In this document: one piece after another, positions 42,556-61,805 of the stretch | Layout of the letters: every line of letters starts with the position of its first letter | How positions within the stretch are numbered: position 1 is the first letter of the stretch | Origin: Mojavia pulchra JT2-VF2 | GTDB lineage: Bacteria > Cyanobacteriota > Cyanobacteriia > Cyanobacteriales > Nostocaceae | Direction: 5' to 3' | DNA length: 64,000 nucleotides | Assembly (NCBI GenBank): GCA_019359325.1 | Contig: JAHHHN010000012.1 | Span: 5,995 to 69,994, forward strand | The notes under the pieces: generated by a model | Told to the model about the DNA's origin: nothing | The model's input: the letters and a program-made list of their open reading frames with translations, nothing else | The model's database searches: none | Program-made: the position numbers and the translations under genes

Positions 42556-42628
42556 GGGGTTATAGCTCAGTTGGTAGAGCGCTGCAATGGCATTGCAGAG
42601 GTCAGCGGTTCGAACCCGCTTAGCTCCA
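42556..42628 (+). tRNA. tRNA-Ala (anticodon GGC)
   Basis: Cloverleaf folded by hand: acceptor GGGGTTA/TAGCTCC with G3:U70, D-arm GCTC/GAGC, anticodon stem CTGCA/TGCAG with loop ATGGCAT (GGC at 42589-42591), T-arm AGCGG-TTCGAAC-CCGCT, discriminator A73; CCA not encoded. Confidence 0.85.
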
Positions 42629-42660
42629 TCCCTTAATAACTACTATCCCGCATTAAATTT

Positions 42661-42756
42661 TGTGACTTTACCCATAACTTTGCCGCAATGGCAAGCTTAT
42701 GGTTCCAGTAGAAGGCGGCAAAGTTATGGTTCCAATTTCTGGGTAATTTTTAAGCT
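42661..42756. repeat. tnsD-proximal transposon end with ~3 closely spaced TnsB-type binding repeats
   Basis: tgtgactttacccataactttgccgc, aagcttatggttcca, ggcggcaaagttatggttcca. Confidence 0.75.
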
Positions 42757-44232
42757 TCATAACTCAAGTTCGCGATTCGCTTCTCTAAGAGCTAATCTAA
42801 CTTTTTTGTATCGGAAGTACCCTGGTCTGGAAACTAGCTCTGAAACAGCAGATTCAGTAGGATATTTACCCTGATTATGTAGCTCAAAAGCAACTAGTCG
42901 CACTTCCTGGCAGCATTCCTCTATTATTTTCTTATGGTAATCTTTCTGATAGCTGTCATACTTGGCAGAGATAGCACGACATAAATCTGGAAAATGTTTG
43001 TAAATCGTTTTTCTATTAACTTCTAACTGCCTAGCAACTTCCTCCATAGATAAAGGAGGAGACTCATCATTTTTGAGTAGCTCTTCTAAATAGAATTTGA
43101 CTCTCTCAGCATTAAATGGCTTATTCCTTGTTCTTAATGTAGTTTTAGCTTCCGTTGCTCCCAATTTCTTTGAGAGAGATAAATTATTATTTTCTTCGGT
43201 CAAAAAGCTTAGAATTGATACTCCAAAACAGTAACAAATATTTGTCAGTGCTTCAAGAGAAGGTAAATTTTTACCTTTACACCATAGCCAAACTGTATTT
43301 CTGGGAACATTAATCTGACGAGCGAATTCAGCTATATTTCCTTCTGCAATTTGCTCAACCCACTTCGATAGAGTGAGAGCGATTGTAGTAGGAGATAGAG
43401 CATCATTCAAATATGGAGTAGCAGCAATTAATTCTCCAAGAGCCTTAGCAGACCATATTTTCTGCTCTAGCTCATTTTTTTTCAAAGCATTCCTATTAGC
43501 TGATTCTTGGGATAGAATCAGTCCTAACCACTCTCCACATTTTGAACAATATCCTGGTTGCGATCGCCAAGCTAGCGTAGTGTTTTTTTGATGACAATGA
43601 GGACACTCACAAATTAATTGATGGTGGTGATAGGGGCATATTTTTACTACATCTAGCGACCAAAGTAAAGGCTCATAAATTAATTGTTTTTTCTCATACC
43701 ATTCTTGATAACAACTCGGACACCAAGCCCGAACAGAGCGTAGTAAATTTCTAGAAGGGAATAGTTTGTCCCAAGTTAGTAAAGTAAGAAAGCATAAGTC
43801 GTCACGGAGCGTTAATTTCTGTAGAGCTTGAACTAAGTCCTTTGCCATGACACCGCTACCGTTGAGTGCGGTAGTGTAATTATATATTCTGTGTAAATTG
43901 GCACCTCCATACTCTTTGTTAACAAGCGTTGCGAGTTGCTTCTCCATTAAAACCCCTGGATTAACACAATGAGCTTCTGCTAACCGAGATATATAACCAG
44001 TTAAACTTTCCACTAATGGAGTGCCAATACCAACAGGCTGTAATTGATACAAGCGACTACGAGATGGAATAGAAAGCTTTTTTAAATCCCAAGATTCGTA
44101 TGTTTCTAATACACTAGCTAACATCTTGCTGCACTCCGATGGGATCTCTTTTAGGTTTGCGTTTGCCAACCTTTCCTGGCGGACGAGTAGTTTTTGGGGT
44201 TTCTTCGGGTAGCACAATTGGTTTTGCGCCAA
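42757..44232 (-). CDS. tnsD: TnsD-like target selector (TniQ N-terminal domain with Zn-finger plus C-terminal HTH extension)
   Basis: WCPSCYQEW...CPYHHHQLICECPHCHQ zinc ribbon shared with the short TniQ at 48449; C-terminal HTH NIAEFARQINVPRNTVWLWCKG; 5' end overlaps tnsC so true start may be internal. Confidence 0.8.
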   Translation of the reverse strand: MAQNQLCYPKKPQKLLVRQERLANANLKEIPSECSKMLASVLETYESWDLKKLSIPSRSRLYQLQPVGIGTPLVESLTGYISRLAEAHCVNPGVLMEKQLATLVNKEYGGANLHRIYNYTTALNGSGVMAKDLVQALQKLTLRDDLCFLTLLTWDKLFPSRNLLRSVRAWCPSCYQEWYEKKQLIYEPLLWSLDVVKICPYHHHQLICECPHCHQKNTTLAWRSQPGYCSKCGEWLGLILSQESANRNALKKNELEQKIWSAKALGELIAATPYLNDALSPTTIALTLSKWVEQIAEGNIAEFARQINVPRNTVWLWCKGKNLPSLEALTNICYCFGVSILSFLTEENNNLSLSKKLGATEAKTTLRTRNKPFNAERVKFYLEELLKNDESPPLSMEEVARQLEVNRKTIYKHFPDLCRAISAKYDSYQKDYHKKIIEECCQEVRLVAFELHNQGKYPTESAVSELVSRPGYFRYKKVRLALREANRELEL

Positions 44233-45265
44233 GTCCTAATGCAGAGCGTAAGTTTTGTATATCTGTTTCTGTTTCAGATAATTGTCGTTCGCCCTCTTGA
44301 ATTTCCTTGAACATTCTCTGACACTGAGCAACCGACCAAGCACGTTTTTGTAAGTCTTTGAGAGTGATTGTTGTTGCTTCCCGATCCAGAGCATCTTTAA
44401 GAGCGCGTGTTAGCCAATTTTTCAGTATGCCAACACATCCTAATGTACGTTCATAAAAATATTCCCAATGAGTAACTAAATCTGGATGCTCTGCAAGTGG
44501 CATCTGCTGTTGAAAAGTCAACAATACACTTTTAAAAGCCTGTACATCATCTGAATTGTCAGCACAATAACGGCGGAAATGAATATCGACGCTACGGCGT
44601 GAGAGTTGACCGCTCAAGTTACGGAATGTAAGTAGTTCGTATGTTCCTAATAGACAGTGCAAAATGCCTGTCATATTTGCCACAGATTTAAGGCAGTCTA
44701 ATTGATCTTGTAGCTTGTATCCGCTTGCCATCTTGCCAAAATGTTGTGCTTCATCTACAAAAAATACGTCTGGATGACGGTGGATGAGGGCATTTTCTAA
44801 AGCTCTGCGTAGAGCAGGTGCAACTACTTTCGACTCAACATTAATTTTTCCAAAATTATCGCGAGAGATACCACGCACACCATAATCAAACTTGTGATCG
44901 ATTAAGGGTTCCTCTAAGGCGATTAAGGCGCGTGTGTAGTAATCTTTCCAGTTGAAGTTTCTCGATTCTGGGGCTACAGCCTCAACACCAACAACAGGAA
45001 CACGACTGCGATCGCTTTCCAGTTTAGGTAATGCTAGTTCTGTTAATTTCTGCTCAACGCGGAGTCGCAAAGTTGTTTTACCAACACCACTAGCACCGTA
45101 AACAAAGATAAATGAAGCTCCTGCTGGTTCGGCAATCGTTCGCATGAGAATTTCATAGACTTCTTTAAGTCGAGGATGCGCTACGGTGTAATTCTCAAAG
45201 TAAGCAAGCCTTTCTGGAGCAGGTCGTGTGAGGAGTTCAAGCGGAAATCCAGTAGTTGGTGTCAT
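44114..45265 (-). CDS. tnsC: TnsC-like AAA+ ATPase transposition regulator
   Basis: Walker A VYGASGVGKTT, Walker B VFFVDEAQH. Confidence 0.8.
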   Translation of the reverse strand: MTPTTGFPLELLTRPAPERLAYFENYTVAHPRLKEVYEILMRTIAEPAGASFIFVYGASGVGKTTLRLRVEQKLTELALPKLESDRSRVPVVGVEAVAPESRNFNWKDYYTRALIALEEPLIDHKFDYGVRGISRDNFGKINVESKVVAPALRRALENALIHRHPDVFFVDEAQHFGKMASGYKLQDQLDCLKSVANMTGILHCLLGTYELLTFRNLSGQLSRRSVDIHFRRYCADNSDDVQAFKSVLLTFQQQMPLAEHPDLVTHWEYFYERTLGCVGILKNWLTRALKDALDREATTITLKDLQKRAWSVAQCQRMFKEIQEGERQLSETETDIQNLRSALGLGAKPIVLPEETPKTTRPPGKVGKRKPKRDPIGVQQDVS

Positions 45266-45267
45266 AA

Positions 45268-47964
45268 TTAAAACTCCTCATACACTACAAGTGTTTCTGG
45301 GACGATTGCTTCATCTTCAGCCACTTGAGTATCAGTATTTTCAAAAGGAACTTGAATAACCTTTGGTTTTTCGTTACGGCTTGTTGTCGCTTTTCCGCCC
45401 TCAATTACCCTAAAGACTTCCCTAGCTTCTGCATCATAGGAACGCTGTTCTAGTAGAGCTTCTTGTGCCTCTACCGATGCTAAAAATTCTGCTAAATTCT
45501 TAGCTGAAACTTGAGATTGTCGTCCATGATTAGAGGAGCGTTTGCGTAACTCAGCACTAGCTAACTTCAATTCTTTTTCTGAGCGACCTTGGAGTTCTGC
45601 ATAATATTGAGAAATACACTGTACCCACTGTCCTCGAACAAAGGCATAAGCGATACCAATATTAAACGGGTCATATCTTATCTGAACAGAGGTATTTTCA
45701 ATTTGCGGATCGCGAAAACTATTAGACCAGTAGTAGATTGAGTTAATTTTTACGCCGCGTCCTGCTTGAACTTTTGCTTTTCCCTCTGAGGTGGTAGGTA
45801 GGGTAAGAATCTGAAAGTTTTCATCGTAAGGAATCATGCGGTGAATCCGACTACCACCAATCGCCATACCCGCAGCAAACGCATCCCTCGGACTCTGGAA
45901 AAGTGCCGGATGTTCGTCTGTATCGTAAACTTCGTAAGCCCAAGCACAAAGATATTCATAAAGTAAACCAAGTGTCCATACAGCTTGATTTTTAGGGTTA
46001 ACTAACTTGGTGACTTGGCGGACGTTACGAGTTATTTGTGTATTACCAAGTAAGTTATGGACAAATTGAGTATTGGAAGTTCCAAATAGGCGCTCGCAAA
46101 CCGAACCAAAACGAGCTTTGGCTGGGGGTCTTTGCTTTTTTGTACATTCAAAAGTAGCTAGTAGTGTCTCGAAGTAAACGCTGTGAAACTCTGTACCGTT
46201 ATCTACGACTACAATTTGTGGGAGTCTACCATGACGCTTGACACAAATTCTTAGCACCATTAAGCAAGAACGATATGAGGGTGAATCAAACGTTAGGTAA
46301 ACTGCCAGCAATCGCCGTGAGTAAGCATCTACTAAAAATGTTGCCCAAGGTCTGCCAAGATTGCGACCTATACGGGAGCAAACTAGCTCTACATCTAACT
46401 GAGTATGGTCGATATGCCCAATTTCAAAGGGGCGATCGCCGTGTCTTGGGGTAGTTTGGGAAAGTTCCCAATAGAAGGATTCATGCTGGTAAGCGGCACG
46501 CCGACCTTGGCGTTTTTTCGTCTGTTCGTAACCAGTACGGCGTTTTACTTCTTTAGTAAATGCTTTGTAACTCGGAGCAATTACACCAGATTGTTCGCAA
46601 GCTCGAACTAAAGCCCCGTAAACCTCCCACATTCTTTTTTGTTTAAGCGTTTCATAGTCTTCTAAAATAAATTTCTCCATAATTGCTAAGGTGTCTTCCG
46701 GCAGCTTGCGCTGACGATTACCTTTGACACTGCGATGGGACAAAAGCCCAATGTAGCCGCAACCGTATTTTTGATGTGCAGTTAGATATTTAGCTTTCCA
46801 GTCACGAATGGTACGGGCTGGTATTGTTTCGTTTTCTGGGGGATGTCCGTTTAAGTAAGGTTCGATAGTTCTGTAGCGTTCAAGAGCTTCTGCTTGGTCT
46901 TCAGGACTAGCTTGATAAAATCGCTGCCAAGATTCTGTGCTAATAGCTGTTTTTTCTGGTGTTTGGAGACTTGTGATTTTTCCTTGGCGAACCAGATTCT
47001 CAAATATAGCTTTCTTGAGTTCAATTAACTGATTATTTTCTGCGCTAAGTATAACCTCTGTTTCGCCAACATGGATGATATTTAAACCTTTGCCGTCCCA
47101 ACTAACAGGTGTTCCAGTGGCAAGATTGATTACAGGAGAGATAGCCGGAAGATGTACACTTGGCTGCTCAACCATTAATCTATAAGCACTAGCAGTTTGT
47201 TCGTCACGGAAGATGAGACATCTTTCTGGTTCAGCAAGTGGTGCAGCATTTAAATCAAAATAGATTTGCTCTTGAGCAATTAAGGTGTAAATATCGTCAG
47301 ATTTAGCTCCTGTTGGCTGATTGAGTAGTTCTGCTAAAGTGATTCCTGGTTGAGATGACACAATTGCAAGTAATGATTGAGCAATTGTTTCTTCCACTGC
47401 TAGGGATTCTGAGCGATAGTAATCTTCTAAAAATTGCAAATTACGTTGCAGAACCCAGTTTATTTCTCTATCTGAACGAATGCGGTAATAAAGCCCAAAC
47501 TGGTTAGCATATACTTCTCCTGGCGGACAATGCCATTGATTATCTTCTTGAGAGCAAAAGTAACGATTGGGGTTTTTCTCTGCTAATTTTTTCAAATCCT
47601 GCTCAGTTTTACACTCTTCCCAACCAGCCGAATTAGTTCGGATGACAAAGAAATCTGGGGTTTGTAAAACGCCTAATCTACGTCCGTTACTTGCTTGATA
47701 GTCAAGTTTAATTTGCGGTGGTTGATCGTAGAATTCTAGAACATCTTCATCATGTTCTAACTGATAGATAATTGGCAGTTCAACTCGATGAGACTCAAAT
47801 TGAATCGTGACTCCCATCTTGCGACTAGGGTAGCGTCCCGAAACATTTTTACTACCGCCACCAACCCGGCGGGATGGTTCAGATGTGCGGACTTTCTCAA
47901 TAATTTTTTGCCCTGCCTCGGATATTTGAAGGCAAGCAACCCATTGTTCAAATTGCTCTTTCAT
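45268..47964 (-). CDS. tnsAB: TnsA-TnsB fusion transposase (N-terminal PD-ExK TnsA-like endonuclease domain + DDE TnsB transposase)
   Basis: N-terminal ...TPDFFVIRTNSAGWEECK (PD...ExK) within first ~200 aa; central DDE region HIDHTQLDV...VVVDNGTEFHS; 898 aa. Confidence 0.8.
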   Translation of the reverse strand: MKEQFEQWVACLQISEAGQKIIEKVRTSEPSRRVGGGSKNVSGRYPSRKMGVTIQFESHRVELPIIYQLEHDEDVLEFYDQPPQIKLDYQASNGRRLGVLQTPDFFVIRTNSAGWEECKTEQDLKKLAEKNPNRYFCSQEDNQWHCPPGEVYANQFGLYYRIRSDREINWVLQRNLQFLEDYYRSESLAVEETIAQSLLAIVSSQPGITLAELLNQPTGAKSDDIYTLIAQEQIYFDLNAAPLAEPERCLIFRDEQTASAYRLMVEQPSVHLPAISPVINLATGTPVSWDGKGLNIIHVGETEVILSAENNQLIELKKAIFENLVRQGKITSLQTPEKTAISTESWQRFYQASPEDQAEALERYRTIEPYLNGHPPENETIPARTIRDWKAKYLTAHQKYGCGYIGLLSHRSVKGNRQRKLPEDTLAIMEKFILEDYETLKQKRMWEVYGALVRACEQSGVIAPSYKAFTKEVKRRTGYEQTKKRQGRRAAYQHESFYWELSQTTPRHGDRPFEIGHIDHTQLDVELVCSRIGRNLGRPWATFLVDAYSRRLLAVYLTFDSPSYRSCLMVLRICVKRHGRLPQIVVVDNGTEFHSVYFETLLATFECTKKQRPPAKARFGSVCERLFGTSNTQFVHNLLGNTQITRNVRQVTKLVNPKNQAVWTLGLLYEYLCAWAYEVYDTDEHPALFQSPRDAFAAGMAIGGSRIHRMIPYDENFQILTLPTTSEGKAKVQAGRGVKINSIYYWSNSFRDPQIENTSVQIRYDPFNIGIAYAFVRGQWVQCISQYYAELQGRSEKELKLASAELRKRSSNHGRQSQVSAKNLAEFLASVEAQEALLEQRSYDAEAREVFRVIEGGKATTSRNEKPKVIQVPFENTDTQVAEDEAIVPETLVVYEEF

Positions 47965-48137
47965 ATAGTCCTTACTAAGCGCTTTGCGCTTGATTTTATG
48001 AATCTATCAAAATCAGACCATAAAGTTAGGAACTTGTTTACCTGATGCTATACTGCTTAACTTTATAACACTTATAGTGTGCAAAAAACCACTGATAGTA
48101 GGTAGATTTAACAGCGATACTGCTTCAGTATTGTTTT

Positions 48138-48398
48138 GTGACACAGAAACACTTCAGTATTGAGTACCGCTTTGGCAAAGCGATTAGGCGGCGAAGGCGA
48201 GAGCTAGATTTATCCCAAGAAGAACTGGCTGAAAAGTCAGGGCTTCACCGCAACTACATCTCAGGTATCGAAAACGGAGAGCGTAACCCTTCGTTAAAAA
48301 ATATTGTTAAGTTAGCGGCAGCTTTGGAGATATCTGTCTCCGCTCTCTTTGTTAATTACGGCATTGAGGTTAAAAGTGAATCGGAAACTAATTCCTGA
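48138..48398 (+). CDS. XRE-family helix-turn-helix transcriptional regulator (86 aa), divergent from tnsAB and upstream of tniQ
   Basis: LSQEELAEKSGLHRNYISGIENGERNPSLKNIVKLAAAL HTH_XRE signature. Confidence 0.75.
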   Translation: MTQKHFSIEYRFGKAIRRRRRELDLSQEELAEKSGLHRNYISGIENGERNPSLKNIVKLAAALEISVSALFVNYGIEVKSESETNS

Positions 48399-48448
48399 AA
48401 TTTGGCTGTTAAAACTAAAATACTAGCCTTTAGGTTAATCCCAGAGGG

Positions 48449-49438
48449 ATGACTATTTACTCAGAAAATTGGAACCTAAAACCTCCAGAAATCCCGCAAC
48501 GGAGTCGGTTATTTTCTCTTGAACCTGTGGCTGTGGGAGCTCCCTATGCAGAAAGTCTTAGTAGCTATCTCCATCGTCTAGCGCAGGCGCATTGTTTAAG
48601 CTCTCAAAAGCTCGTTATGGGAGAAATTGCGCCACTTATTCTCAAAGATGAGGATAAATCTGAGCTATTAGAACAAAATCTAAGTCACCTATTAGGAAAT
48701 AGCGACGCTAAACCTGCTATCAACGGAATGCGAGAAATGACAGGAAAGTTAGTCACTGTCTTAGAAGAGTTAACAATGCGTCAGGATTTACGCTTTTTGA
48801 CCCTTTTAAGCTGGAAAGGAATGATTTATGACAAGGGGTTATTTCGGAACTATCGCGCTTGGTGTCCTTGTTGTTGGCAAGAGTGGAAGCAGGAGAACAA
48901 AACTATTTATGAACCATTATTATGGTCATTTAAGGATGTAGAATTTTGTTTGATTCACAAACAGCGATTAATAGAAGAATGTCCTCATTGTGGTTCGCGT
49001 TTACCTGTGATGGCTAGGCTTTCACCTGCGGGATTTTGCTCTCGTTGTTACGGGTGGTTAGGACAGGAAATTAAAGGCGAAGAGGAAATAGAGAAATATC
49101 AAATTAATATTCAAGGAATTAGCGAATTAATTACACTTACTCCCCAATTAGGATATAAACCCATCCCGATTGAGTTAACCCGAAAATTACAATTGATTTT
49201 GTTAGTGTTTGAACAAGCAATTGGAAAGGATGTGAAGTTATTGGGAGATTTAGGGGGAATCATGGAATCGTTGAGGATAGCCTCAACAAGAAATCAAAGT
49301 CAACCTTATCATTTGGTGAAGTTGATTATTCCTGTGTGCGAGAAGGCGAAGATTACTGTATCCCAGCTGTTTGGGTCAGATTTTAAGGAATTGGGCAAGA
49401 TATTGTTCGGTAATTTTAGTCTGGAATTAAAGTTATAG
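48449..49438 (+). CDS. tniQ: Short TniQ-family protein (Cascade-associated targeting factor)
   Basis: N-terminal 200 aa align closely with the tnsD product (RSRLFSLEPVAVGAPYAESLSSYLHRLAQAHC; WCPCCWQEW...CPHCGSRL) but lacks the C-terminal HTH extension. Confidence 0.8.
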   Translation: MTIYSENWNLKPPEIPQRSRLFSLEPVAVGAPYAESLSSYLHRLAQAHCLSSQKLVMGEIAPLILKDEDKSELLEQNLSHLLGNSDAKPAINGMREMTGKLVTVLEELTMRQDLRFLTLLSWKGMIYDKGLFRNYRAWCPCCWQEWKQENKTIYEPLLWSFKDVEFCLIHKQRLIEECPHCGSRLPVMARLSPAGFCSRCYGWLGQEIKGEEEIEKYQINIQGISELITLTPQLGYKPIPIELTRKLQLILLVFEQAIGKDVKLLGDLGGIMESLRIASTRNQSQPYHLVKLIIPVCEKAKITVSQLFGSDFKELGKILFGNFSLELKL

Positions 49439-50045: not shown

Positions 50046-51503
50046 ATGAGTACCACGACCTACGACCTAATTGCCAAGCTCTGGAATCTCTGTAACGTCC
50101 TCAAAGATGATGGCGTGACGTATCACCAATACGTTATTGAACTGACGTACCTGCTGTTTCTGAAGATGGCGAAAGAGACCCGCACTGAAAACCTGCTTCC
50201 AGAGGGTTATCGGTGGGACGATCTGGAAGGCAAGGCAGCAAATGAGCGTCTGGATTTTTACAAATTGCTGTTGATCCACCTTGGTAGTCGCGGTTCCACA
50301 CTTGTTAAAGAAATTTTTGCCAACGCCAATTCCTCTATCAACAAGCCCAATACACTTTCTACACTAGTTACTGAGATTGACAAGCTTGACTGGTATAGCG
50401 CCCGGCAAGAAGGATTGGGCGACGTGTATGAAGGGCTGCTGGAGAAGAACGCTAATGAAAAGAAATCCGGTGCTGGTCAGTACTTTACACCCCGTCCGCT
50501 GATCGATAGTATGGTGCATGTTATGCGCCCTACGTTGAAGGATGTTATTCAAGACCCCGCAGCAGGAACAGGCGGTTTTTTAATCGCCGCCAATCGCTAC
50601 ATACGCGAAAACAGTGACCCGGATATCTGGACAGAAAAACAGCAACGCAAGTACCGTAGCAATACCTTCTACGGTATGGAGCATGTGCAGGACACGCACC
50701 GTCTGGCTTTAATGAATCTAATGCTGCATGGGCTAGAGTTTGACCCGCAAGGGGCAGGTATCCGCTACGGCGATACGCTTTCGCCAGAGGGAGAAGCATT
50801 GCCGAAAGCAACGCTGATCCTTACCAATCCACCTTTCGGCTCCAAGAAAGGGGGTGGTCTACCTACTCGCAAAGACTTCACTTTTTCTACCAGTAATAAA
50901 CAATTTTGCTTTCTGCAACACATTTATGGTGGTCTCAAGCCTGGTGGTCGTGCTGCGGCAGTTTTTCCAGACAGTGTGTTATTTGACAGCAATGTCGGTA
51001 AGCAGATTCGCACTGAATTGATGGAAAAGTGCAACCTACATACCATCTTGCGCCTACCAAGTGGTATTTTTTATGCTCCAGGTGTTAAGACTAACGTGCT
51101 GTTTTTCACACGTGGTAAAAAAGAAAACGGTAATACCCAAGAAGTTTGGGTATACGATCTGCGTACTAACATATCGCAGTTTGGCAAGCGAACTCAACTT
51201 ACACGTAAGCACTTTGCCGAGTTTGAAGTTGCCTTTGGCGATGACCCTCTTGGTATGCCAGAAAGTCTTGCCAAGCGTGTAGATACTGGCGAGCAAGGGC
51301 GTTTTAGAAGATTTACCCGTGATTTGATCGCCAAACGCGGTGAAAACTTGTATATTGCTTGGCTTAAGGATGAAAACGAAGAGAATAATAGCAAACTCAC
51401 CGAACCAGAGTTGCTTGTACAAGAAGCGATGAGTGAACTGGAAGCTGCTCTGACAGAATTGCAGGAAATTCTAGAGGAGTTGGGTGAGGAGATTGAAGCA
51501 TGA
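50046..51503 (+). CDS. hsdM: Type I restriction-modification N6-adenine DNA methyltransferase subunit
   Basis: HsdM N-terminal domain, AdoMet motif DPAAGTGGFL, catalytic NPPFG. Confidence 0.9.
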   Translation: MSTTTYDLIAKLWNLCNVLKDDGVTYHQYVIELTYLLFLKMAKETRTENLLPEGYRWDDLEGKAANERLDFYKLLLIHLGSRGSTLVKEIFANANSSINKPNTLSTLVTEIDKLDWYSARQEGLGDVYEGLLEKNANEKKSGAGQYFTPRPLIDSMVHVMRPTLKDVIQDPAAGTGGFLIAANRYIRENSDPDIWTEKQQRKYRSNTFYGMEHVQDTHRLALMNLMLHGLEFDPQGAGIRYGDTLSPEGEALPKATLILTNPPFGSKKGGGLPTRKDFTFSTSNKQFCFLQHIYGGLKPGGRAAAVFPDSVLFDSNVGKQIRTELMEKCNLHTILRLPSGIFYAPGVKTNVLFFTRGKKENGNTQEVWVYDLRTNISQFGKRTQLTRKHFAEFEVAFGDDPLGMPESLAKRVDTGEQGRFRRFTRDLIAKRGENLYIAWLKDENEENNSKLTEPELLVQEAMSELEAALTELQEILEELGEEIEA

Positions 51504-53164: not shown

Positions 53165-54786
53165 AGCTTTTAAGGGTTCACATCATTTATGCTAAAACTT
53201 GCGGGGGGCTACTTGATGGACTGAACTTACAGTTACGAAGTCCATTTAGTGGCTATTCTGGGTTTGATCCTTTATGTCTTATTGGTCCGAATGGCGCAGG
53301 AAAATCTCAATTCTTGCAAGTGCTAACAGAAATTTTTCAGTCTGTTTTCCACACATGCCTTCCCAATGAAGAACGTTCCGAAGGGCCAGACTTGCATTTC
53401 GAGCTTGAGTACCTCATTCACCCAGAAGATGAGCAGCTACCTGTCCGTGTCCGCATTTCACGGAAAGCCAGTCGTAAAAATCGTCCAAGCCTTGTAATTG
53501 AGCGGAGAGATGAAGATGAATACGACTGGATAGAATGTGACCTCAAAGCTCCTGAAACCCATAAACTTTTACCTCAAAAGATTGTTGGCTATACGTCAGG
53601 CGATAATGAAACGCTTAGTTTGCCGTTCCTCTTAAGTCGCAGTGGGTACGCGAAGGATGTAACCGAAAGTGCATTACACGAGCCAAAACGCGTTCCCGAT
53701 ACTCGGCTAATGCTGATTGACTATGGAACGCACCTTGAAGTTTTTGTGGCAAATCTCCTGTTGGGTGATGCTTCCCAGTGGGATTTTCTGCTACAGGATG
53801 CAAAACTGCAAAACCTGCACTCATTTCGTTGCATAGTCCAACTTGCACACAGTGCAGCCCCGAAGATTCCAAGTAGGAGAGGCTCACAAAGTACGCGAAA
53901 AGGAATACAACTTACCAAGGAACTGGAAGATTATCTCGATCAGCTCCAACGTTGCGCTACCTGCTACACCTATGACGATAAAACAGAGACGTATACCTTT
54001 GACTATTGGATAAATGACCAGACAAGAGAAGCGTTTCGCTCCTTTTGGAACAACACGCTTGATTTGTACTCGTCATTCCACAAGTTCGCAATGTTAAACG
54101 ACTTGGTACTTCCCAAGAAAACCCGTGAGCGGTTTCGGAAAGACACCAAATCGAGAAGGTTTGCTTCACGTCTTCCAGAGCCTCAGGATGAAGATAAGGT
54201 TTTCCGATTTGAAAGCGTTATGTTTACTGCTCAAAGGACTGGCAAAGAGGTAGACTACGTATCGCTTTCCGATGGCGAGCATCAGCTTGGGCAGATTCTT
54301 GGAACATTTTGTATGTTGTCATTTCCTAATGTACTTTTCCTGCTTGATGAGCCTGAGTCGCATTTCAATCCGCTATGGCGGGTGAAATTCATTTCACGCA
54401 TATTGGATCTGCCTACTACACATGGCGATCGCAGAGAATCAGCTAAAGCTACTGAACAAGAGTGCTTACTAACAACACACTCGCCTTTCGTCCCCTCTGA
54501 TATGCATAGAGACAAAGTTTTTATTTTTAGCAAAGACGAAGAAGGGAAGATTCAAGTCCAAAATCCTAATATTGAGACATTTGGCACTACATTCGACACA
54601 ATCATTGAGGAATGCTTTAACGTTCGCCCGCCTATGTCACAAGTTCCTCATGATGAGATTAAAAGGCTTATGGAGAGTGAAAATCCCGAAGAGATTAGGG
54701 CAGGGATGCAGCATCTAGGTGATTCTGTTGAGAAAGCATTTCTTGTTGATCGACTGTTGCAGCTAACAAATAGGGATGAGGTGTAG
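53161..54786 (+). CDS. ABC/SMC-like ATPase of the AAA_15/AAA_21 type (Septu PtuA-like) translationally coupled to hsdS
   Basis: Walker A LIGPNGAGKSQ, signature-like LSDGEHQ, Walker B LFLLDEPESHFNP, H-loop LLTTHSP; ATGA overlap with hsdS stop. Confidence 0.7.
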   Translation: MKLLRVHIIYAKTCGGLLDGLNLQLRSPFSGYSGFDPLCLIGPNGAGKSQFLQVLTEIFQSVFHTCLPNEERSEGPDLHFELEYLIHPEDEQLPVRVRISRKASRKNRPSLVIERRDEDEYDWIECDLKAPETHKLLPQKIVGYTSGDNETLSLPFLLSRSGYAKDVTESALHEPKRVPDTRLMLIDYGTHLEVFVANLLLGDASQWDFLLQDAKLQNLHSFRCIVQLAHSAAPKIPSRRGSQSTRKGIQLTKELEDYLDQLQRCATCYTYDDKTETYTFDYWINDQTREAFRSFWNNTLDLYSSFHKFAMLNDLVLPKKTRERFRKDTKSRRFASRLPEPQDEDKVFRFESVMFTAQRTGKEVDYVSLSDGEHQLGQILGTFCMLSFPNVLFLLDEPESHFNPLWRVKFISRILDLPTTHGDRRESAKATEQECLLTTHSPFVPSDMHRDKVFIFSKDEEGKIQVQNPNIETFGTTFDTIIEECFNVRPPMSQVPHDEIKRLMESENPEEIRAGMQHLGDSVEKAFLVDRLLQLTNRDEV

Positions 54787-55870
54787 GATGCTGTTTGGGT
54801 ATCCCGTTTCGGCAACAGCGGAAAATTGGCTTCACGAATGCTTACGCGAGATTCTGTGTTCAATTCATACAAGCCTAAAAGCAGCAGCCACTCTGCCAGC
54901 ATGGCCTGAAATTATTCCAGCGCAATACCGAAAAAGGTTGGAAAAACGCCGAGGGCTGGAAGATAGGTTGAATAATTACAAGACAGCTTTAGAAAAGCTT
55001 ACCACCGCAGAACAGAACCGAATTCTTCAAGCATTCCATGACCAAAATCAGATTGATCTTCTCTTGTCTTGCCAATTGAACTGTGAAGCTATCGGTGATT
55101 TGCCAGAAGTCATTCATGAGCCAGTAAAAAAACTTTTTGAATTTGGGTTTGAACTTCTCACAAAACTGGAAATCCGCGATAAGCACTACAAGGTAATTTA
55201 TGATGCGGCTCCCTCTCATACATGTCCTTTCTGTGGGTGTGAGTACTTTGATGCACCAGAAGCACCCCGTGAAGCATTGGATCATTACCTGGCAGAAAGC
55301 AAATACCCATTTGCTGCTTCAAATTTGCGTAACCTTGTTCCAATGGGAAATAAATGTAACTCTCGCTACAAACTTGCGAAGGATATTCTCTTGAGGAATG
55401 ACGGCACTCGTCGCAAATCGTTTGACCCTTACAACTGTACAGGAATCAGACTCTCTCTCGAAAACAGTCAGCCTTTTGCTGGTACACTTGCACCAACTGG
55501 TCAACTACCGCGATGGCAAATCGAGTTTGGCCCAAACACTGAAGAGGTGATTACTTGGGATGAAGTGTTCCATATCAGAGAACGATATGAAAGAGACGTG
55601 CTAAACGCTGAATTTATAAGTTGGCTAAGGTATTTCCAGTCTTGGTGCAAATCTGCGAAAATTGCGCCTAGTTCTGACCAAGAATTGATGGATGCGCTCA
55701 ATCGTTGTGCAACCCACTGCGAAGAGATGGGGATTAGCGATCGCGCGTTCTTAAAAGCCGCTGTATTCCGAATGTTGCACACACATTGCCAGCAAGGTGA
55801 TCAACGACTTATTTCATTGATCATGAGTATTGTGAACCCAGGACAAACCAATTTGCGGCAAGCCCCGTAA
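54776..55870 (+). CDS. HNH-family nuclease (Septu PtuB-like) overlapping the ATPase gene end
   Basis: HTCPFCGC...ALDHYLAESKYP...NLVPMGNKCNSRYK = Cys pair, His, Asn-Asn of HNH motif. Confidence 0.65.
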   Translation: MRCRMLFGYPVSATAENWLHECLREILCSIHTSLKAAATLPAWPEIIPAQYRKRLEKRRGLEDRLNNYKTALEKLTTAEQNRILQAFHDQNQIDLLLSCQLNCEAIGDLPEVIHEPVKKLFEFGFELLTKLEIRDKHYKVIYDAAPSHTCPFCGCEYFDAPEAPREALDHYLAESKYPFAASNLRNLVPMGNKCNSRYKLAKDILLRNDGTRRKSFDPYNCTGIRLSLENSQPFAGTLAPTGQLPRWQIEFGPNTEEVITWDEVFHIRERYERDVLNAEFISWLRYFQSWCKSAKIAPSSDQELMDALNRCATHCEEMGISDRAFLKAAVFRMLHTHCQQGDQRLISLIMSIVNPGQTNLRQAP

Positions 55871-55972
55871 ACTAAATCAATTTTGACGCGATCGCTTTTA
55901 TCCTACATCCTCATAGTTTGTAAACTGTAGTAGCCCAAAATTCTACTATTTGTTTACTGGTGTAGCTATTAT

Positions 55973-56266
55973 ATGAGCGATAAGGGTAAAAAAGAAACAA
56001 AAATGTATATTTATATTACAGATGTTGTATTCGTTGCTTGGAATAAAGACAGAGGAGAGCTTTTAAAGCGATTGCGTGGGAAAAAATCGCGGCAGAAACT
56101 AGCTGATGAAATTGCAGCCAAGGGAGGTGAATGCTCCCATCAAAACATTAAAAAACTAGAGTATGGTGAGTCTGAAAGTGTTTCTATAAAAGTATTAGAG
56201 GCTATTTGTGCTGCATTGAATATTTCTCTGAGCGACTTCCTTAGCGTTGTAGAAGTGACTCATTAA
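55973..56266 (+). CDS. XRE-family HTH regulator (97 aa)
   Basis: SRQKLADEIAAKGGECSHQNIKKLEYGE...LEAICAALNISLSDFL HTH signature. Confidence 0.65.
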   Translation: MSDKGKKETKMYIYITDVVFVAWNKDRGELLKRLRGKKSRQKLADEIAAKGGECSHQNIKKLEYGESESVSIKVLEAICAALNISLSDFLSVVEVTH

Positions 56267-56317
56267 AGTTTTGGATATCTTCTTGCTTTTTAGCTACTAA
56301 AGTTACTAATATATCTT

Positions 56318-56701
56318 ATGAAATCAAAAAGGCGATCGCCCTCCGGCAAGAGAAATGCGATCGCCTTTTGTTCAACCCCGTTAATGAGGTCACTCATGAT
56401 GATTGTACAAGATGACTTTAGCAACTCAGCCTTGGCTGAATCAGAGTTTGAGGAATATATTGACCACCTGGCCGACCCAGTAGCACCAGAAATTGAAATT
56501 GACTCAGTAGCAGATGACTTGGGTGAACTGTATCGAGTCTGGAATGGTTCTCAACTACTTGGCACTTTCTACCAAAATCTGGAAAGTAAATGGATAGCAC
56601 AACCCTGTAATAGCGATGACAGGCAATGCTGTGACACTCCTTTGGCAGCGCAAATAATCATCATCGCTGTTAATGGCTTACTTGTAGCCGACGTAGCATA
56701 A
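56318..56701 (+). CDS. Hypothetical acidic protein (true start probably internal, ~100 aa)
   Basis: ORF only; N-terminal 20 codons contain two HIP1 sites and look non-coding. Confidence 0.3.
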   Translation: MKSKRRSPSGKRNAIAFCSTPLMRSLMMIVQDDFSNSALAESEFEEYIDHLADPVAPEIEIDSVADDLGELYRVWNGSQLLGTFYQNLESKWIAQPCNSDDRQCCDTPLAAQIIIIAVNGLLVADVA

Positions 56702-56893
56702 CACACAAAGCATTTATCCCATCGACTTGGAGAGGTGATTCAATCACCTCTCTTTTTTGTATGCTTTGTCAAGTTCACTTTCTAGAAATGCACTGGCTCT
56801 TTGAGAACAGTTTTCTCGCAAAGCAGCAACTCTGACAACCTTCCAGCGCATAATTTCTTCTCTACATTCATCAAGCTGCTTGATTCGCCCTAG

Positions 56894-57076
56894 TTTGAGC
56901 AACGCCTAACGGCATCAAGCCACGAATCACAAATTTGTCTACCCCGTTCGTACCATTCTTCTCTATTTTGAGCAACGCCTAACGGCATCAAGCCACGAAT
57001 CACCTGCAAAAAAGGAATTTGTGCTTGTTGAGACCCGTACTTGAGCAACGCCTAACGGCATCAAGCCACGAATCAC
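56894..57076. CRISPR. CRISPR mini-array: 3 x 37-bp repeats ([T/C]TTGAGCAACGCCTAACGGCATCAAGCCACGAATCAC) at 56894-56930, 56967-57003, 57040-57076 with two 36-bp spacers
   Basis: Direct reading; third repeat differs at its first base. The array lies ~250 bp downstream of cas5 on the minus strand, so it is probably transcribed on the minus strand (repeat then reads GTGATTCGTGG...GTTGCTCAAR). Confidence 0.85.
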
Positions 57077-57324
57077 AGCAAAGCTGAAAATCCTTAACTG
57101 AGGAAGGCTCATTTACAATCTTACAAGTACCTTCCAGATCAAGAAACCAAAAACTCAAAACCTACCAAAGTTTCCCTTATTTTCAGCCCCTCAAACCCAG
57201 TGCTGATCAACTTTTCCAAAAATAGCAAGCACCTTTTTCCTTGCCTCAATTCCCATATCCCTTACCGTGTAAACCTTGCCGCCATTCTTTTACCCTGAAT
57301 TCCCTTTCCAATAAGAGATACTTG

Positions 57325-57963
57325 TCAAATTGGAGATTGAATCATCGTCCACGCCAAATCAGGAGGAGGTGAGCTTGACATTTCCTCAATCCGATACCTC
57401 AAAAATCGGGTATTTCTTGACCCCACATGGTCAACCCAATAGGGTAAGGTTAACCTACCTCGATTATCCCTAATTACCCACTGTCTCACCCCCCCAAGAT
57501 AATCTTGGGAGACAAGTTTGATTGATTTAATCAACTGATCACTTTCTCCTAAAAATAAACAACCAAATCGTCTTACTAGCTCAGGATGGTCAAACGCTAA
57601 CTGTATCCTCTCCCTTAAACTTGGTTGTATTTTCTCCCCCTCAGAACGAACCCAAATCAAACACTTGAGATTAGACAAAATTTCTTGATAACCGGGAATA
57701 ACATTCTCTGGATGGCTAAAATCAGCATTTTTAAACCGTCTCATTTGACGCAAAATTCGCGACTTTTTGGGGCTAGATAACATTGCGATCGCCAATTCTA
57801 CCCCACAGTGGCGATAAACATCCGTTTCCCCTACCAAAGACAACAACATCCCATACACTGTTGCTGGAGATGGGACAGGATAGGTTTTTCCCATTTCTCT
57901 TGCATGGGACTCCCGAAAAGTCGCAAAGGGAACATCCAAATAGAGAATTAATGGTGCAATCAT
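57325..57963 (-). CDS. cas5: Cas5 (type I Cascade subunit)
   Basis: N-terminus MIAPLILYLDVPFATFRESHAREMGKTYPVPSPATVYGMLLSLVGE is the Cas5 RAMP signature. Confidence 0.75.
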   Translation of the reverse strand: MIAPLILYLDVPFATFRESHAREMGKTYPVPSPATVYGMLLSLVGETDVYRHCGVELAIAMLSSPKKSRILRQMRRFKNADFSHPENVIPGYQEILSNLKCLIWVRSEGEKIQPSLRERIQLAFDHPELVRRFGCLFLGESDQLIKSIKLVSQDYLGGVRQWVIRDNRGRLTLPYWVDHVGSRNTRFLRYRIEEMSSSPPPDLAWTMIQSPI

Positions 57964-58928
57964 TTTGATTCTTCTAAGCCCAAATCTCTTTTAATGACTG
58001 TTTTCAAGTCTTCAATCAGTTCATTTCGATTACGATAAATATGCGCCTTATTAAAAGTGGAATTCTCAAAATTATCCAATTCCTGTAACTCTTTGACCAT
58101 TGTTCCCCCAATCCACAATTGGCTAGGGTCAATCTGTCCGCATTCCACTTCATCGATAAATTCTTTTGTAAATTTTGCTTCCTTACTCTTAGGCTCACAA
58201 TATTCAAAGCAATAGGAAATGTATGAAGCAAAATTATTTGTCCATTGCAATACCAAACTATCGGGACAGAAAGGATAGTTAAAAATATTGCTACTCCCTC
58301 CTACCTTGGGTAATTCCATAATCCCATCTATCAGAGGTAAAATCCGCGAATAGTTTTTGAGATGAGTGGCATTAATTCCAAAATAATATTGATATCGAGT
58401 TGCGTGATATTCTGTAATATGGAGCGATGTACTATCCTTTTCCCTGCCACTTTTCGCCCCTAACTTGACTGCACCATCATAAGGCGTTAGCGAAACAGCC
58501 ATATTCATCGCTAAAGCACCAATTCGCTGATTAGGAGTGCTGGTTTTTTTTTGTTTCTTTTTTCTCTTTGTTGTTGAAGTCTCCTCCTCTGTCTCCGCAG
58601 ACTCTAATAAAGCAAACCCAAAAATATCATCATCATAAAATTGTTCTGGATCAAAATCTTCACTTGTTAACCGATTAATATGTTCATCTTCATCCCAAAC
58701 TCGATTAACTAAATAACCTTGCTTTTGAAGATAAAAGCGTAACGCCCAACGAATCGCGCTAGAACCTACAAAAGAATGAATTTTACCATTCCAATAGCCT
58801 TTTTGTAGAATAGTTTTATTTCCTCGTCTGATGTCATGATTTAAGGAGGCTAACCCATAACGAGTGAGGACTGTTCCGTAAAGATAATAATTGGGGATAT
58901 TATTGTCATTCTTCTTCTGACTCATCAT
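57960..58928 (-). CDS. cas7: Cas7 (type I-B Cascade backbone subunit)
   Basis: YLYGTVLTRYGLASLNHD...GSSAIRWALR N-terminus and glycine-rich thumb; 322 aa; start overlaps cas8 end. Confidence 0.75.
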   Translation of the reverse strand: MMSQKKNDNNIPNYYLYGTVLTRYGLASLNHDIRRGNKTILQKGYWNGKIHSFVGSSAIRWALRFYLQKQGYLVNRVWDEDEHINRLTSEDFDPEQFYDDDIFGFALLESAETEEETSTTKRKKKQKKTSTPNQRIGALAMNMAVSLTPYDGAVKLGAKSGREKDSTSLHITEYHATRYQYYFGINATHLKNYSRILPLIDGIMELPKVGGSSNIFNYPFCPDSLVLQWTNNFASYISYCFEYCEPKSKEAKFTKEFIDEVECGQIDPSQLWIGGTMVKELQELDNFENSTFNKAHIYRNRNELIEDLKTVIKRDLGLEESK

Positions 58929-60537
58929 TCACTTCTTCTGGTTTTTGATTGTTTGTAGATAAACTATCATCCCCACTGGTGGATTTATCTTTGGGTTTAT
59001 AACTGGCGATCGCTAACAATGACCAAATTCTTAGTTCTTGCCAAGGTGATTTTTTGATTAGTAGTGAAATTTCTTCTTGATGCTGATTAAAATACTTATT
59101 TAATCCCCCTCTTACTAAAAAGTCAGATAAATATTCCTTAAACGACAATTCATCATAACAATAGTTTAGCTCCGCCCTTAATCGTTCAACCTTCTTCTTA
59201 ATGGGAGGGTCTTTCCCTTCCTCAGCTTTAGCATACATTTTAGCAAAATTGCCTTTCATCGCTTGCTGAAATACCTTGATAAAAATAAGATACTGCTTGT
59301 CTTCTTCGCTATTCTCTGCCATTCTTATGAATCCTTCCCGATTGGGAAATATTTGGTTAAATAAGTATTCTTTTGAATCCTCTATCACCAATTTTTCCCA
59401 AAAATTAGACCACCAATGAATTCCCGTCACTAAATTATCAGCAATCAGCGAGCGAATTGGATTTACGTTAATAAAAATTTGCTTAGGTTTAATCTTCTGA
59501 TAATTTGCTTGAAAATATTTTTGAACCTGTTGATAAGTGATTAAAGTATTTTTATCAATTTCAATTTCTTGTATACTCATCAATGTTCTTTGACGAGAAG
59601 CTTGATTCATTTTTTCATATAACCAAACTTGACAAGCTTGATAGTAGTCGCCTTCAAGCTGAATATCGTCTAAGCTGTAATAAAGTAATCCTGCTTCACC
59701 AAGGCTACTAACATGAAGCTGTTTTGTTTCTAATTGCTGTAATCGCCATCTTCTTTGAGAAGCGTCTTCAAAATCCTTGATTTCTGGAATCACCACCAGG
59801 TAGCGATGGGGTTTCTTTCCCTTCAAGTCTTCTGATGGGATATGAAGTAAGCAATAATGACAAACTACTGGTACAAATAATAATGCTAAGGCGTATTCAG
59901 GTTTCTCTTCTAGTTTTGTAGTATTCTGCGTCCTAGCATGGCGAACAATTCCCCCTAAATACAACCAACTGGTTATTTGAACATAATCATGTCTGAGTTG
60001 TTGGGTATCTACTTCGTATAACTTCTCTGCAAAGGTTTGATGTGCGTACCAAGTTAGGGATTTGTATTGATACTCGACTTTTTTTTCTTCAAACTTTAGT
60101 TCAGTGTTAACTATCTCTCCCGCTTGATAAAACTGGTTATGACGCAGAAAAACAGCACACATTCCCTCATGAATATGAATTTTCTGACTTAAATCTATTG
60201 CATCATTGTCTAATCCTGTTAAATGAATTAAACCTGTATCATCTAATTGAAAAGACCCTTTAATTAACCAAGATAGGGCGACAAAAACACTTCCTTGCCA
60301 GAATAATTCAATAGTATCAGCAGTCAAAGACCATGATATATGTCCTCCGCGTTGACGAGATGAGGGATATTGCTTTTCTAATCGCTTTAAAGTCATGTAT
60401 AGTCCCGTCATTCCCACGCGGTGCATTATTGTCGTATCCGCAGCATTGAGAGATAGGGAGATTTTGGGTTGGGTAGCAACCATGATCAGGTTTCCTCTTC
60501 TTCCTTGCTGCGAGTCGCTGGGACAAATATTCCACAC
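58906..60537 (-). CDS. cas8: Cas8b-like large subunit
   Basis: 543 aa protein encoded between cas6 and cas7 in an overlapping operon; no strong motif, assignment by position and size. Confidence 0.6.
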   Translation of the reverse strand: MWNICPSDSQQGRRGNLIMVATQPKISLSLNAADTTIMHRVGMTGLYMTLKRLEKQYPSSRQRGGHISWSLTADTIELFWQGSVFVALSWLIKGSFQLDDTGLIHLTGLDNDAIDLSQKIHIHEGMCAVFLRHNQFYQAGEIVNTELKFEEKKVEYQYKSLTWYAHQTFAEKLYEVDTQQLRHDYVQITSWLYLGGIVRHARTQNTTKLEEKPEYALALLFVPVVCHYCLLHIPSEDLKGKKPHRYLVVIPEIKDFEDASQRRWRLQQLETKQLHVSSLGEAGLLYYSLDDIQLEGDYYQACQVWLYEKMNQASRQRTLMSIQEIEIDKNTLITYQQVQKYFQANYQKIKPKQIFINVNPIRSLIADNLVTGIHWWSNFWEKLVIEDSKEYLFNQIFPNREGFIRMAENSEEDKQYLIFIKVFQQAMKGNFAKMYAKAEEGKDPPIKKKVERLRAELNYCYDELSFKEYLSDFLVRGGLNKYFNQHQEEISLLIKKSPWQELRIWSLLAIASYKPKDKSTSGDDSLSTNNQKPEEVNDESEEE

Positions 60538-61148
60538 ATCATTTTTCGTTTCCCGCCAATTCCCTGTTCTTGCAACGTTAAGGAATCTTCTGGGTTGAGT
60601 GAGCTAATTTTTATGCCAAATCCTCTAACTTTAAACTGTTTCCCTTTTTGATTGATGGTTAATTGTCTTTTTTGAGGTGTTCCATCTTGTCGGGTAAGAA
60701 GTTCAATTTTTCCTTGTATTCCTTTATTATCCAGTTGCCGTTGCACAGCTTCAATAAAGTTAGTCGAGTCTTGAAAACCTGTAATTATGACTAATCTGGA
60801 ATAGACACTTTCTGAAGAAATTAACGGTTTGTAGTCGGGAATATCTAGTTGATAAGAATTTTGACCTATGTGAAAAGCTTGACCTGCTAAATAAAGATAA
60901 ATTAAAGGAATTTGTTGATGATGAATCCGAATTTTGAGGCGAGATTGAGCAGTAAGTTCAAGCAAATTATTTCTTGTCGGTATTCCAGCAATCGGATGAA
61001 TACCAATAGACTCTAGTTCGTGAAGGATAGGACAAATCCTGCACAATGCGCTATAGATAACATAACCATTATCAAGAGGAATCGGTGCGCCTCTGAGCTT
61101 AAACGTTAAGTCTACATATTCCTCACTTTGAATTAATATGGCTGCCAT
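60486..61148 (-). CDS. cas6: Cas6 crRNA endoribonuclease
   Basis: C-terminal glycine-rich loop GIGGKRKMMCGIFVP and ferredoxin-like N-terminus; 220 aa. Confidence 0.75.
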   Translation of the reverse strand: MAAILIQSEEYVDLTFKLRGAPIPLDNGYVIYSALCRICPILHELESIGIHPIAGIPTRNNLLELTAQSRLKIRIHHQQIPLIYLYLAGQAFHIGQNSYQLDIPDYKPLISSESVYSRLVIITGFQDSTNFIEAVQRQLDNKGIQGKIELLTRQDGTPQKRQLTINQKGKQFKVRGFGIKISSLNPEDSLTLQEQGIGGKRKMMCGIFVPATRSKEEEET

Positions 61149-61419
61149 AGATGGAAATTTCGAGAAAAATTTAAAGATGGCAGAGTTTGTTTAATACATC
61201 AACATTCTCTTGTGCAAAATTGCTCTCATTGTCATCGCCAACTAATTTGGTTAGACTAGCAATCCAGTTTAGGCTATTGTTCGCAATGTTCTCAATGGTT
61301 AGGAGGATATTATACTACTCCAGTAGTTACTCACAACAGTTCGATAGCCGAAAGTCTCTATCCCATACCAGCATGAACCGCTTCTGCTCCCTTCTAAAAA
61401 AATCCGGCGCTTTCCTGCT

Positions 61420-61595
61420 TTCTATGCTTAATTGGACTCACGGCAAGCTTATCCTTCCAACTGGGACTTGCGGCAAATTTATGGTTCCAAACTGGCAATT
61501 GCATCCAAAATTAGCTGACGCAAGAATGAGGGTTATAGTGACATTGACGGCAAAGTTATGGTTCCAGTAGCGGCAAAGTTATGGGTAAAGTCACA
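61420..61595. repeat. cas6-proximal transposon end with 4-5 dispersed TnsB-type repeats (cggcaagcttatccttcca, gcggcaaatttatggttcca, gacggcaaagttatggttcca, gcggcaaagttatgggtaaagtcaca)
   Basis: Direct reading; terminal 26 bp exact inverted repeat of 42661-42686. Confidence 0.75.
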
Positions 61596-61805
61596 AAATT
61601 TTGTGGCAACTTATGCTTGTTGTCACAAAATCGCAGTTTATGCTTGTAAGTCTCGGTAGTGTGCATGATGCTAAATCGCATGGCTGTACTCTAAATGTGC
61701 TGTTTTCAATCATTTGGAGCAAGCGAATAACCATAATGACAGGCATTATGGAAAAAGGTTGAATTTAATGGCTTATTGGCTGTTATTCAGTTCTATAAAT
61801 AACTC

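Follow-up and report, generated by a model that had tools for sequence, protein, structure and literature searches.

A probable type I-B2 CRISPR-associated transposon, intact beside a tRNA-Ala gene of Mojavia pulchra, with an apparently exchanged tnsD cassette

The window analyzed here, a 64-kb stretch of DNA from the cyanobacterium Mojavia pulchra JT2-VF2 (Nostocaceae), contains at positions 42661-61595 an intact 18.9-kb element that is very probably a type I-B2 transposon of the Tn7-like kind associated with CRISPR (short palindromic repeats that are clustered and regularly interspaced), with the I-B2.1 layout. Its close sibling is PmcCAST (Tn7744), an experimentally validated type I-B2.1 CRISPR-associated transposon (CAST), for which the depositors give Nostoc sp. 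'Peltigera membranacea cyanobiont' 210A as the source. The structure of its Cascade-TniQ-TnsC complex has been solved, and guidance of transposition has been demonstrated for the proteins. An earlier note on this DNA, made from the letters alone, had proposed a type I-B CAST with a fused TnsAB and tRNA homing, and this proposal agrees with the protein domains, the 92-93% identity to PmcCAST proteins, the I-B2.1 gene order, and a distance of 32 nt between the element and a tRNA gene.

The comparison with PmcCAST, which was made by sequence search of solved structures, shows that the two elements have in common a tnsAB-tnsC-tnsD operon with tniQ apart from it, the genes cas6-cas8/11-cas7-cas5, a CRISPR array, a fused transposase, and tRNA homing. 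TnsAB, TnsC, TniQ, Cas6, and Cas5 are 92-93% identical between them, and Cas7 and Cas8 are similarly close. In contrast, TnsD of the Mojavia element is only 49.5% identical to that of PmcCAST, the cargo and the host are different, and the attachment gene is tRNA-Ala(GGC) in Mojavia versus tRNA-Val on the target plasmid of PmcCAST.

Transposition and Cascade genes

The genes of the transposition and targeting machinery are as follows.

42757..44124, minus strand: tnsD, 455 aa, Pfam TniQ domain (7.7e-18) and C-terminal helix-turn-helix (HTH) DNA-binding domains; homing selector
44114..45265, minus strand: tnsC, 383 aa, AAA+ regulator (AAA_22, 2.5e-14; TniB-like ATPase)
45268..47964, minus strand: tnsAB, 898 aa, fused endonuclease-transposase (TnsA_N, TnsA_C, rve, Mu-transpos_C)
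48449..49438, plus strand: tniQ, 329 aa, short selector coupling Cascade to TnsC (Pfam TniQ, 2.7e-21)
56894..57076, minus strand: CRISPR array, three 37-nt repeats (GTGATTCGTGGCTTGATGCCGTTAGGCGTTGCTCAAR) and two 36-nt spacers
57325..57963, minus strand: cas5 (TIGR02586, 4.4e-39, Cas5/DevS), product 92.0% identical to PmcCAST Cas5
57960..58928, minus strand: cas7 (TIGR02585, 4.1e-16, Cas7/DevR), 683 bits against PmcCAST Cas7 (PDB 8fcj_C)
58906..60537, minus strand: cas8 (TIGR03485 and TIGR03486, Cas8a1/Csx13), 1068 bits against PmcCAST Cas8
60486..61148, minus strand: cas6 (Pfam Cas6, 1.1e-66; TIGR02807, Cas6/Cmx6), product 91.8% identical to PmcCAST Cas6

Measured against the functional PmcCAST proteins, all nine machinery genes are full length, and TnsAB, TnsC, TniQ, Cas6, and Cas5 are encoded with no frameshift. 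Profile searches placed the 898-aa protein, the 383-aa protein, both TniQ proteins, and the cas proteins in the families that the earlier note had named for them, while the length it gave for TnsD has to be corrected: the figure of 491 aa corresponds to the longest open reading frame (ORF), which begins at a TTG, whereas the ATG at 44124, shared with the JGI gene call and with PmcCAST TnsD, gives 455 aa. TnsAB is 92.8% identical to PmcCAST TnsAB (PDB 9bw1_M, 898/898 residues aligned) and has the DDE-region motifs HIDHT (517), VVVDNG (585), and VCERLF (622). TnsC, with 92.4% identity, has a Walker A motif, GASGVGKT, at residue 57 and a Walker B motif, FFVDEAQ, at residue 168, and TniQ is 93.0% identical to its counterpart (PDB 8fcu_P). 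The short TniQ consists of the PF06527 TniQ domain only, while the long TnsD has PF06527 and the C-terminal HTH region, and the best PDB matches of the 455-aa and 329-aa proteins are PmcCAST TnsD and TniQ, respectively. The tnsAB-tnsC-tnsD operon with a separate tniQ is the arrangement published for the I-B2.1 branch.

The cas proteins are of the I-B "MYXAN" type according to NCBIfam profile models. The start of cas8 is likely the ATG at 60483, which gives 525 aa, and residues 406-543 of its ORF (58906-59322) match the separate Cas11 chain of PmcCAST with 265 bits. As the earlier note had stated, cas3, cas1, cas2, and cas4 are absent among the ORFs of the element, and none of the remaining ORFs is cas-like either. 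In the array, the three repeats stand by themselves in that no further copy in the window reaches 23/37 identity, and the Rfam scan of the window detected a tRNA alone and left the CRISPR-DR family unmatched.

In published I-B2 CASTs, TnsD serves tRNA homing and TniQ serves RNA guidance, with ATG as the protospacer-adjacent motif (PAM). By analogy with the published work on PmcCAST, RoCAST, and McCAST, the fused TnsAB of the Mojavia element would bind the asymmetric sites at both ends to cut and join the element, and the two selectors, TnsD and TniQ, would compete for TnsC. The C-terminal DNA-binding half of TnsD would bind the tRNA-Ala(GGC) gene, and TnsD would recruit TnsAB via TnsC, with insertion occurring left end first at ∼32 nt downstream of the tRNA gene, that is, vertical "homing". 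TniQ, on the other hand, would dock on a nuclease-free I-B Cascade, composed of Cas6, Cas8, Cas11, Cas7, and Cas5 with a CRISPR RNA (crRNA) from the two-spacer array, and TniQ-Cascade would recruit the same TnsC-TnsAB to targets with the ATG PAM, with insertion ∼80-90 bp past the protospacer for horizontal spread. As adaptation genes are lacking from the element, it would have to acquire new spacers in trans.

Two observations around the array and the cas genes may be added. Upstream of cas6, the minus strand holds a promoter-like TTGTGA-16-TATAAT (61336-61309). Promoter-like matches in the promoter/terminator scan were at chance level. In two metagenome loci, L087 (2084-2149) and L118, the same left-end sequence as in the Mojavia element is inserted 18 nt past a CRISPR repeat ending GATGCCGTTAGGCGTTGCTCAA, which belongs to the repeat family of the Mojavia CAST's own array; these insertions are reminiscent of a Tn7-like family that targets CRISPR repeats (PMC11837452).

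Element ends and the tRNA-Ala attachment site

The boundaries of the element and the features flanking it are listed below.

42556..42628, plus strand: tRNA-Ala(GGC) (ARAGORN; Rfam tRNA, 65.9 bits), outside the element
42655..42660: target-site duplication, left copy, AAATTT
42661..42738: left end, an inverted terminal 26-bp site followed by two TnsAB-binding-type sites of opposite orientation (42690, 42717) at 27 nt spacing
61442..61595: right end, sites at 61442, 61472, and 61549 and the terminal site at 61570-61595, all in one orientation
61596..61601: target-site duplication, right copy, AAATTT
61602..61657: apparent scar of an older element with a second family of tRNA-Ala-homing ends, outside the CAST and directly past the right duplication

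The left terminus (42661-42686) is TGTGACTTTACCCATAACTTTGCCGC and the right terminus (61570-61595), ending in ACA, is its exact reverse complement, GCGGCAAAGTTATGGGTAAAGTCACA; the terminal inverted repeat (TIR) is thus perfect over 26 bp and of the TGT/ACA type, just as the earlier note had described it. Its claim of internal TnsB-type repeats at both ends also holds. When the whole window was scanned for the site GGCAARNTTATGGTTCC with ≤2 mismatches, five of the six matches lay in the two ends, at 42690, 42717, 61442, 61472, and 61549, against 0.10 expected, and none of 100 shuffled sequences reached six matches. The two inner left-end sites, GGCAAGCTTATGGTTCC at 42690 and GGCAAAGTTATGGTTCC at 42717, point the other way from the terminal site. 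A left end with sites of both orientations is a published hallmark of the cyanobacterial fused-TnsAB family, and the tRNA-proximal end is therefore called the left end here. At the right end, a 127-aa ORF (61187-61570, plus strand) that has no family match overlaps the TnsB sites and is probably not a gene.

Sibling copies of the element, drawn from exact-protein look-ups, a hisF genome scan, and a scan of metagenomes for the left-end 20-mer, fix both boundaries because they carry different flanks. The self-complementary AAATTT could, from the Mojavia sequence alone, count as an extension of the TIR. It is, however, flank rather than element because sibling copies start at TGTG behind unrelated sequence, such as ..AACCTGG in L085 and ..AACCAAG in L086, whose left end is 93% identical to that of the Mojavia element over 74 bp. 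Both types of end start at TGTG behind unrelated sequence in dozens of metagenome loci, and the right-end sequence is found again with unrelated flanks in loci such as L101, L118, L122, and L134. The AAATT(T) that the earlier note placed on both flanks is confirmed insofar as the flanks are identical over 6 bp, but the immediately adjacent 5-mers differ, AATTT on the left and AAATT on the right, so that the duplication reads as 6 bp or, if an offset of 1 nt in the A/T run is allowed, as 5 bp. A clean duplication was seen neither in the loci with both ends (L130 and L157) nor in 55-bp scars. Those palindromic scars of ∼55 bp lie at tRNA sites in metagenome loci L088, L093, L127, and L139 and consist of the left-end 26-mer, 3 nt, and a terminal site of the right-end type, with no interior. 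The second left-end site and the right-end terminal site are direct repeats, and a deletion between the two would fit the structure of the scars.

The left end is proximal to the tRNA-Ala(GGC) gene, which is presumed to be the recognition target of TnsD, and the gap from the 3' end of the gene is 32 nt. The published TnsD homing distance in I-B2 CASTs is 29-31 bp past the tRNA gene, and left ends of the Mojavia-element family are located 29-33 nt past tRNA-Val, -Lys, -Ala, -Leu, -Glu, and -Thr genes.

The empty site foreseen by the earlier note, with tRNA-Ala followed directly by the gene for a PAS kinase, was looked for among species-level relatives collected by a contig scan with the neighboring HisF-family (His_biosynth) protein (80 loci). 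The synteny of hisF and tRNA-Ala(GGC) is kept in most of these 80 cyanobacterial relatives, while a precise empty site is absent among them; homology to the left flank ends at the 3' end of the tRNA, and the right flank with the PAS kinase gene is unmatched in any of the 80 loci. The tRNA-Ala site is instead a hot spot. It is occupied in L005, L006, L037, L085, and several metagenome loci, and remnants of ends are present in L008 and L035. The two closest relatives by HisF (96% identical), L005 from Aulosira sp. DedQUE10 and L006 from Nostoc carneum NIES-2107, hold other Tn7-like elements there. These are fused-TnsAB elements (at 11.4-20.3 kb of the two loci), each with two long TnsD-like genes in tandem and with no short TniQ or cas genes within the 10 kb examined.

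Directly past the right duplication, the scar listed above contains two YTTATGCTTGT sites 27 nt apart, which are the only two in the window (0.13 expected), and it is identical at 34/40 positions to the spacer and second site of the L006 left end. Ends of the YTTATGCTTGT family occupy the same tRNA-Ala in L006, L037, and L084. It appears from these matches that the CAST was inserted at the junction of an earlier tRNA-Ala-homing element, since deleted; such a history would account for the lack of any relative with tRNA-Ala beside the PAS kinase gene. The TGTG of the scar starts exactly at the position expected for a left end in the preinsertion sequence, suggesting that the attachment site has been used repeatedly and that a remnant gives no immunity.

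The tnsD cassette, the control region, and the cargo

The divergence between the Mojavia element and PmcCAST in TnsD is unevenly distributed along the protein: identity falls from 82% in the first 50 aa to ∼56% over what remains of the TniQ domain, and it is 28-52% in the C-terminal DNA-binding half. A similar break is seen at the DNA level in the comparison with sibling L086, where 87% identity begins at the tniQ stop (49445), covers tnsAB and tnsC, and extends to 43943, and similarity becomes undetectable from 43942 to 42735, that is, from ∼60 codons into tnsD to the left end. The exchanged unit is thus ∼1.2 kb, from codon ∼61 of tnsD to its stop. Judging from these alignments, the tnsD cassette of the Mojavia element has probably been replaced relative to PmcCAST, with retargeting of homing as the result. 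Exchange of TniQ/TnsD partners among these CASTs has already been published as promiscuous or modular.

Among the siblings, the type of TnsD tracks the neighboring tRNA gene. The copies at tRNA-Ala(GGC), L095, L085, L120, and L154, have TnsD proteins 81-91% identical to that of the Mojavia element, and even more distant elements at tRNA-Ala(GGC), L005, L006, and L037, have TnsD at 55-60% while their TnsAB is just 49-57% identical. Conversely, L092, which lies at tRNA-Val(GAC), is 94% identical in TnsAB, 96% in TnsC, and 92% in TniQ, yet only 50% in TnsD, and TnsD of L086, at tRNA-Thr(UGU), is 47% identical. L085 (at the same hisF/tRNA-Ala site), L095 (from a metagenome-assembled genome of Brasilonema angustatum), L120, and L154 have the same core, TnsD type, and tRNA-Ala(GGC) site as the Mojavia element and the same left terminus of 26 bp, but differ in flanks and cargo; the comparison was made outside the cas region and so does not imply that they are CASTs. 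At 90% identity, the clusters of TnsAB, TniQ, and TnsD have 102, 94, and 14 members, respectively, from Nostoc, Calothrix, Desmonostoc, Dolichospermum, and Brasilonema. These sizes indicate that the core of the element is common in Nostocales, and the description of such an RNA-guided transposon as rare in the earlier note was therefore overstated.

The remaining features of the element are the following.

47965..48137: divergent control region between tnsAB and the xre gene, from alignment with four sibling loci
48138..48398, plus strand: XRE-family HTH gene, 86 aa (HTH_3, 3.9e-20), directly upstream of tniQ and divergent from tnsAB
50046-51503, plus strand: hsdM (Pfam; PADLOC MTase_I, 1.5e-203)
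51500-53164, plus strand: hsdS (Pfam; PADLOC Specificity_I, 1.3e-101)
53161-54786, plus strand: PtuA-like ATPase gene (Pfam; PADLOC PtuA, 2.7e-46)
54776-55870, plus strand: gene for a PtuB-like HNH protein (Pfam; PADLOC PDC-M62B/PtuB)
55973-56266, plus strand: cargo HTH protein, 97 aa (HTH_26, 1.6e-09)
56318-56701, plus strand: cargo ORF, 127 aa, with no family match
56729..56753, plus strand: strong terminator-like hairpin, 11-bp stem and T-run, between cargo and array

Four siblings, L085, L086, L092, and L154, have the XRE protein at this position too, with 88-97% conservation, and the control region contains two perfect and conserved palindromes, ATACTG-AAG-CAGTAT (48117-48131) and ACACT-ATA-AGTGT (48068-48080). 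The XRE protein is a candidate for a regulator in I-B2 CASTs. In a 2024 review, the only CASTs listed with co-opted regulators are those of I-F3 and V-K. We lean toward the view that the siblings form a natural near-isogenic series, in which a PmcCAST-type core (TnsAB, TnsC, and TniQ with at least 86% identity, and the same ends) is combined with interchangeable tnsD cassettes that have fixed breakpoints, one at codon ∼61 and one in the interval separating the tnsD stop from the innermost left-end site, and that retarget homing to different tRNA genes, and that the xre gene with its palindromes acts as the transcriptional switch still missing for I-B2 CASTs, in analogy to RtaC/RtbC of I-F3 and CvkR of V-K elements.

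In the cargo, hsdM, hsdS, the ptuA-like gene, and the ptuB-like gene (50046..55870, plus strand) form a translationally coupled operon with overlapping stop and start codons, and hsdR was not found anywhere in the element. The operon can be read in two ways, as a type I methylase/specificity pair to which a Septu-like pair of ATPase and HNH protein is coupled, or as a type I system that lacks R and has a Septu embedded in it, and no paper on the hsdM-hsdS-ptuA-ptuB combination was found in the literature. The hairpin at 56729-56753, past the cargo, was the only feature to stand out in the promoter/terminator scan.

Competing explanations and significance

Since Tn7-like elements often carry defense systems, and the Mojavia element also holds hsdMS and Septu-like genes, the cas genes and array might themselves be defensive cargo on a plain Tn7-like element rather than a targeting module. 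The lack of cas3, cas1, cas2, and cas4 in the element makes this highly improbable, as does the 92-93% identity of Cascade and TniQ to the very proteins of PmcCAST that were solved in complex with TnsC and that guide transposition. It is just as hard to believe that a homing spacer, of the kind known from V-K and some I-B1 CASTs, guided the insertion behind tRNA-Ala through its crRNA and that TnsD did not, even though, according to published work, cyanobacterial V-K CASTs usually home to tRNA genes under crRNA guidance. Neither of the two spacers, nor the 36 nt past the last repeat, matches the tRNA gene or any other part of the window with ≤11 mismatches, an extra or degenerate repeat unit is absent, and homing at tRNA-Ala is therefore not crRNA-guided as far as the window goes. 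Moreover, the 32 nt from the tRNA end corresponds to the distance of TnsD and not the ∼80-90 bp of a type I guide, and a TnsD with DNA-binding domains is present whose type covaries with the tRNA.

A more serious competitor, which we nevertheless regard as unlikely, is that the element is a fixed, immobile relic that is structurally complete but silenced or inactive and has been vertically inherited at tRNA-Ala. The related copy at the same site, L085, has a frameshifted tniQ, which means that decay does occur in this lineage; the array has only two spacers, neither with a detectable target, and the 80 relatives provide no empty site. Against such a relic stand the full length of all nine machinery genes relative to functional proteins, the perfect 26-bp TIR with identical flanks, and the presence of the Walker and DDE-region motifs. 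The interpretation of the interval as an intact type I-B2 CAST has, for its part, several points weighing against it. The duplication at its flanks is not cleanly 5 bp long. For neither spacer was a target found among PLSDB plasmids or INPHARED phages (blastn) or in IMG/VR (22-nt seeds). The recency of insertion that the earlier note had suggested is unsupported, given that a precise empty site is missing among the 80 relatives. Transposition by the Mojavia copy, along with both targeting mechanisms, the PAM, and the insertion distances, would follow by analogy from what has been published on PmcCAST, RoCAST, and McCAST, and the tRNA-Ala specificity of its TnsD is suggested by correlation. We found no experimental characterization of Ala(GGC) specificity in the literature, nor any paper pairing Mojavia pulchra with "transposon", although supplementary tables that possibly list the element were not covered by that search.

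As an intact type I-B2 CAST, the element takes its place among several known systems. RoCAST (I-B2.2) and McCAST/CyCAST (type I-D) resemble it in the fused TnsAB, in the dual TniQ/TnsD selectors, and in homing, which occurs 29-31 bp past a tRNA gene, and McCAST belongs to the cyanobacterial, tRNA-targeting family with fused TnsAB that has been described with left-end sites in both orientations. RoCAST differs from the Mojavia element in having a tnsAB-tnsC-tniQ operon with tnsD beside the cas genes, while McCAST/CyCAST differ in their I-D Cascade and in Tns proteins that are ∼50% identical to those of PmcCAST. With Escherichia coli Tn7, the element shares TGT/ACA ends, several asymmetric TnsB sites, the TnsC adaptor, and TnsD homing to a fixed site downstream of a conserved gene. 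Tn7 is distinguished by its separate TnsA and TnsB, its glmS attachment site, and the use of TnsE in place of the Cascade/TniQ pathway.

For type I-B2 RNA-guided transposition, PmcCAST serves as the model in both structure and biochemistry, and the Mojavia element is a complete natural variant of it in which the core is kept at 92-93% identity and the homing protein and attachment tRNA appear to have been swapped. Existing knowledge of CASTs is left unchanged by the element, modular TniQ/TnsD exchange having already been published. What PmcCAST and the Mojavia element would offer together is a ready specificity-swap pair with mapped breakpoints, which may be used to learn how TnsD reads a tRNA gene and to build orthogonal tools for safe-harbor insertion.

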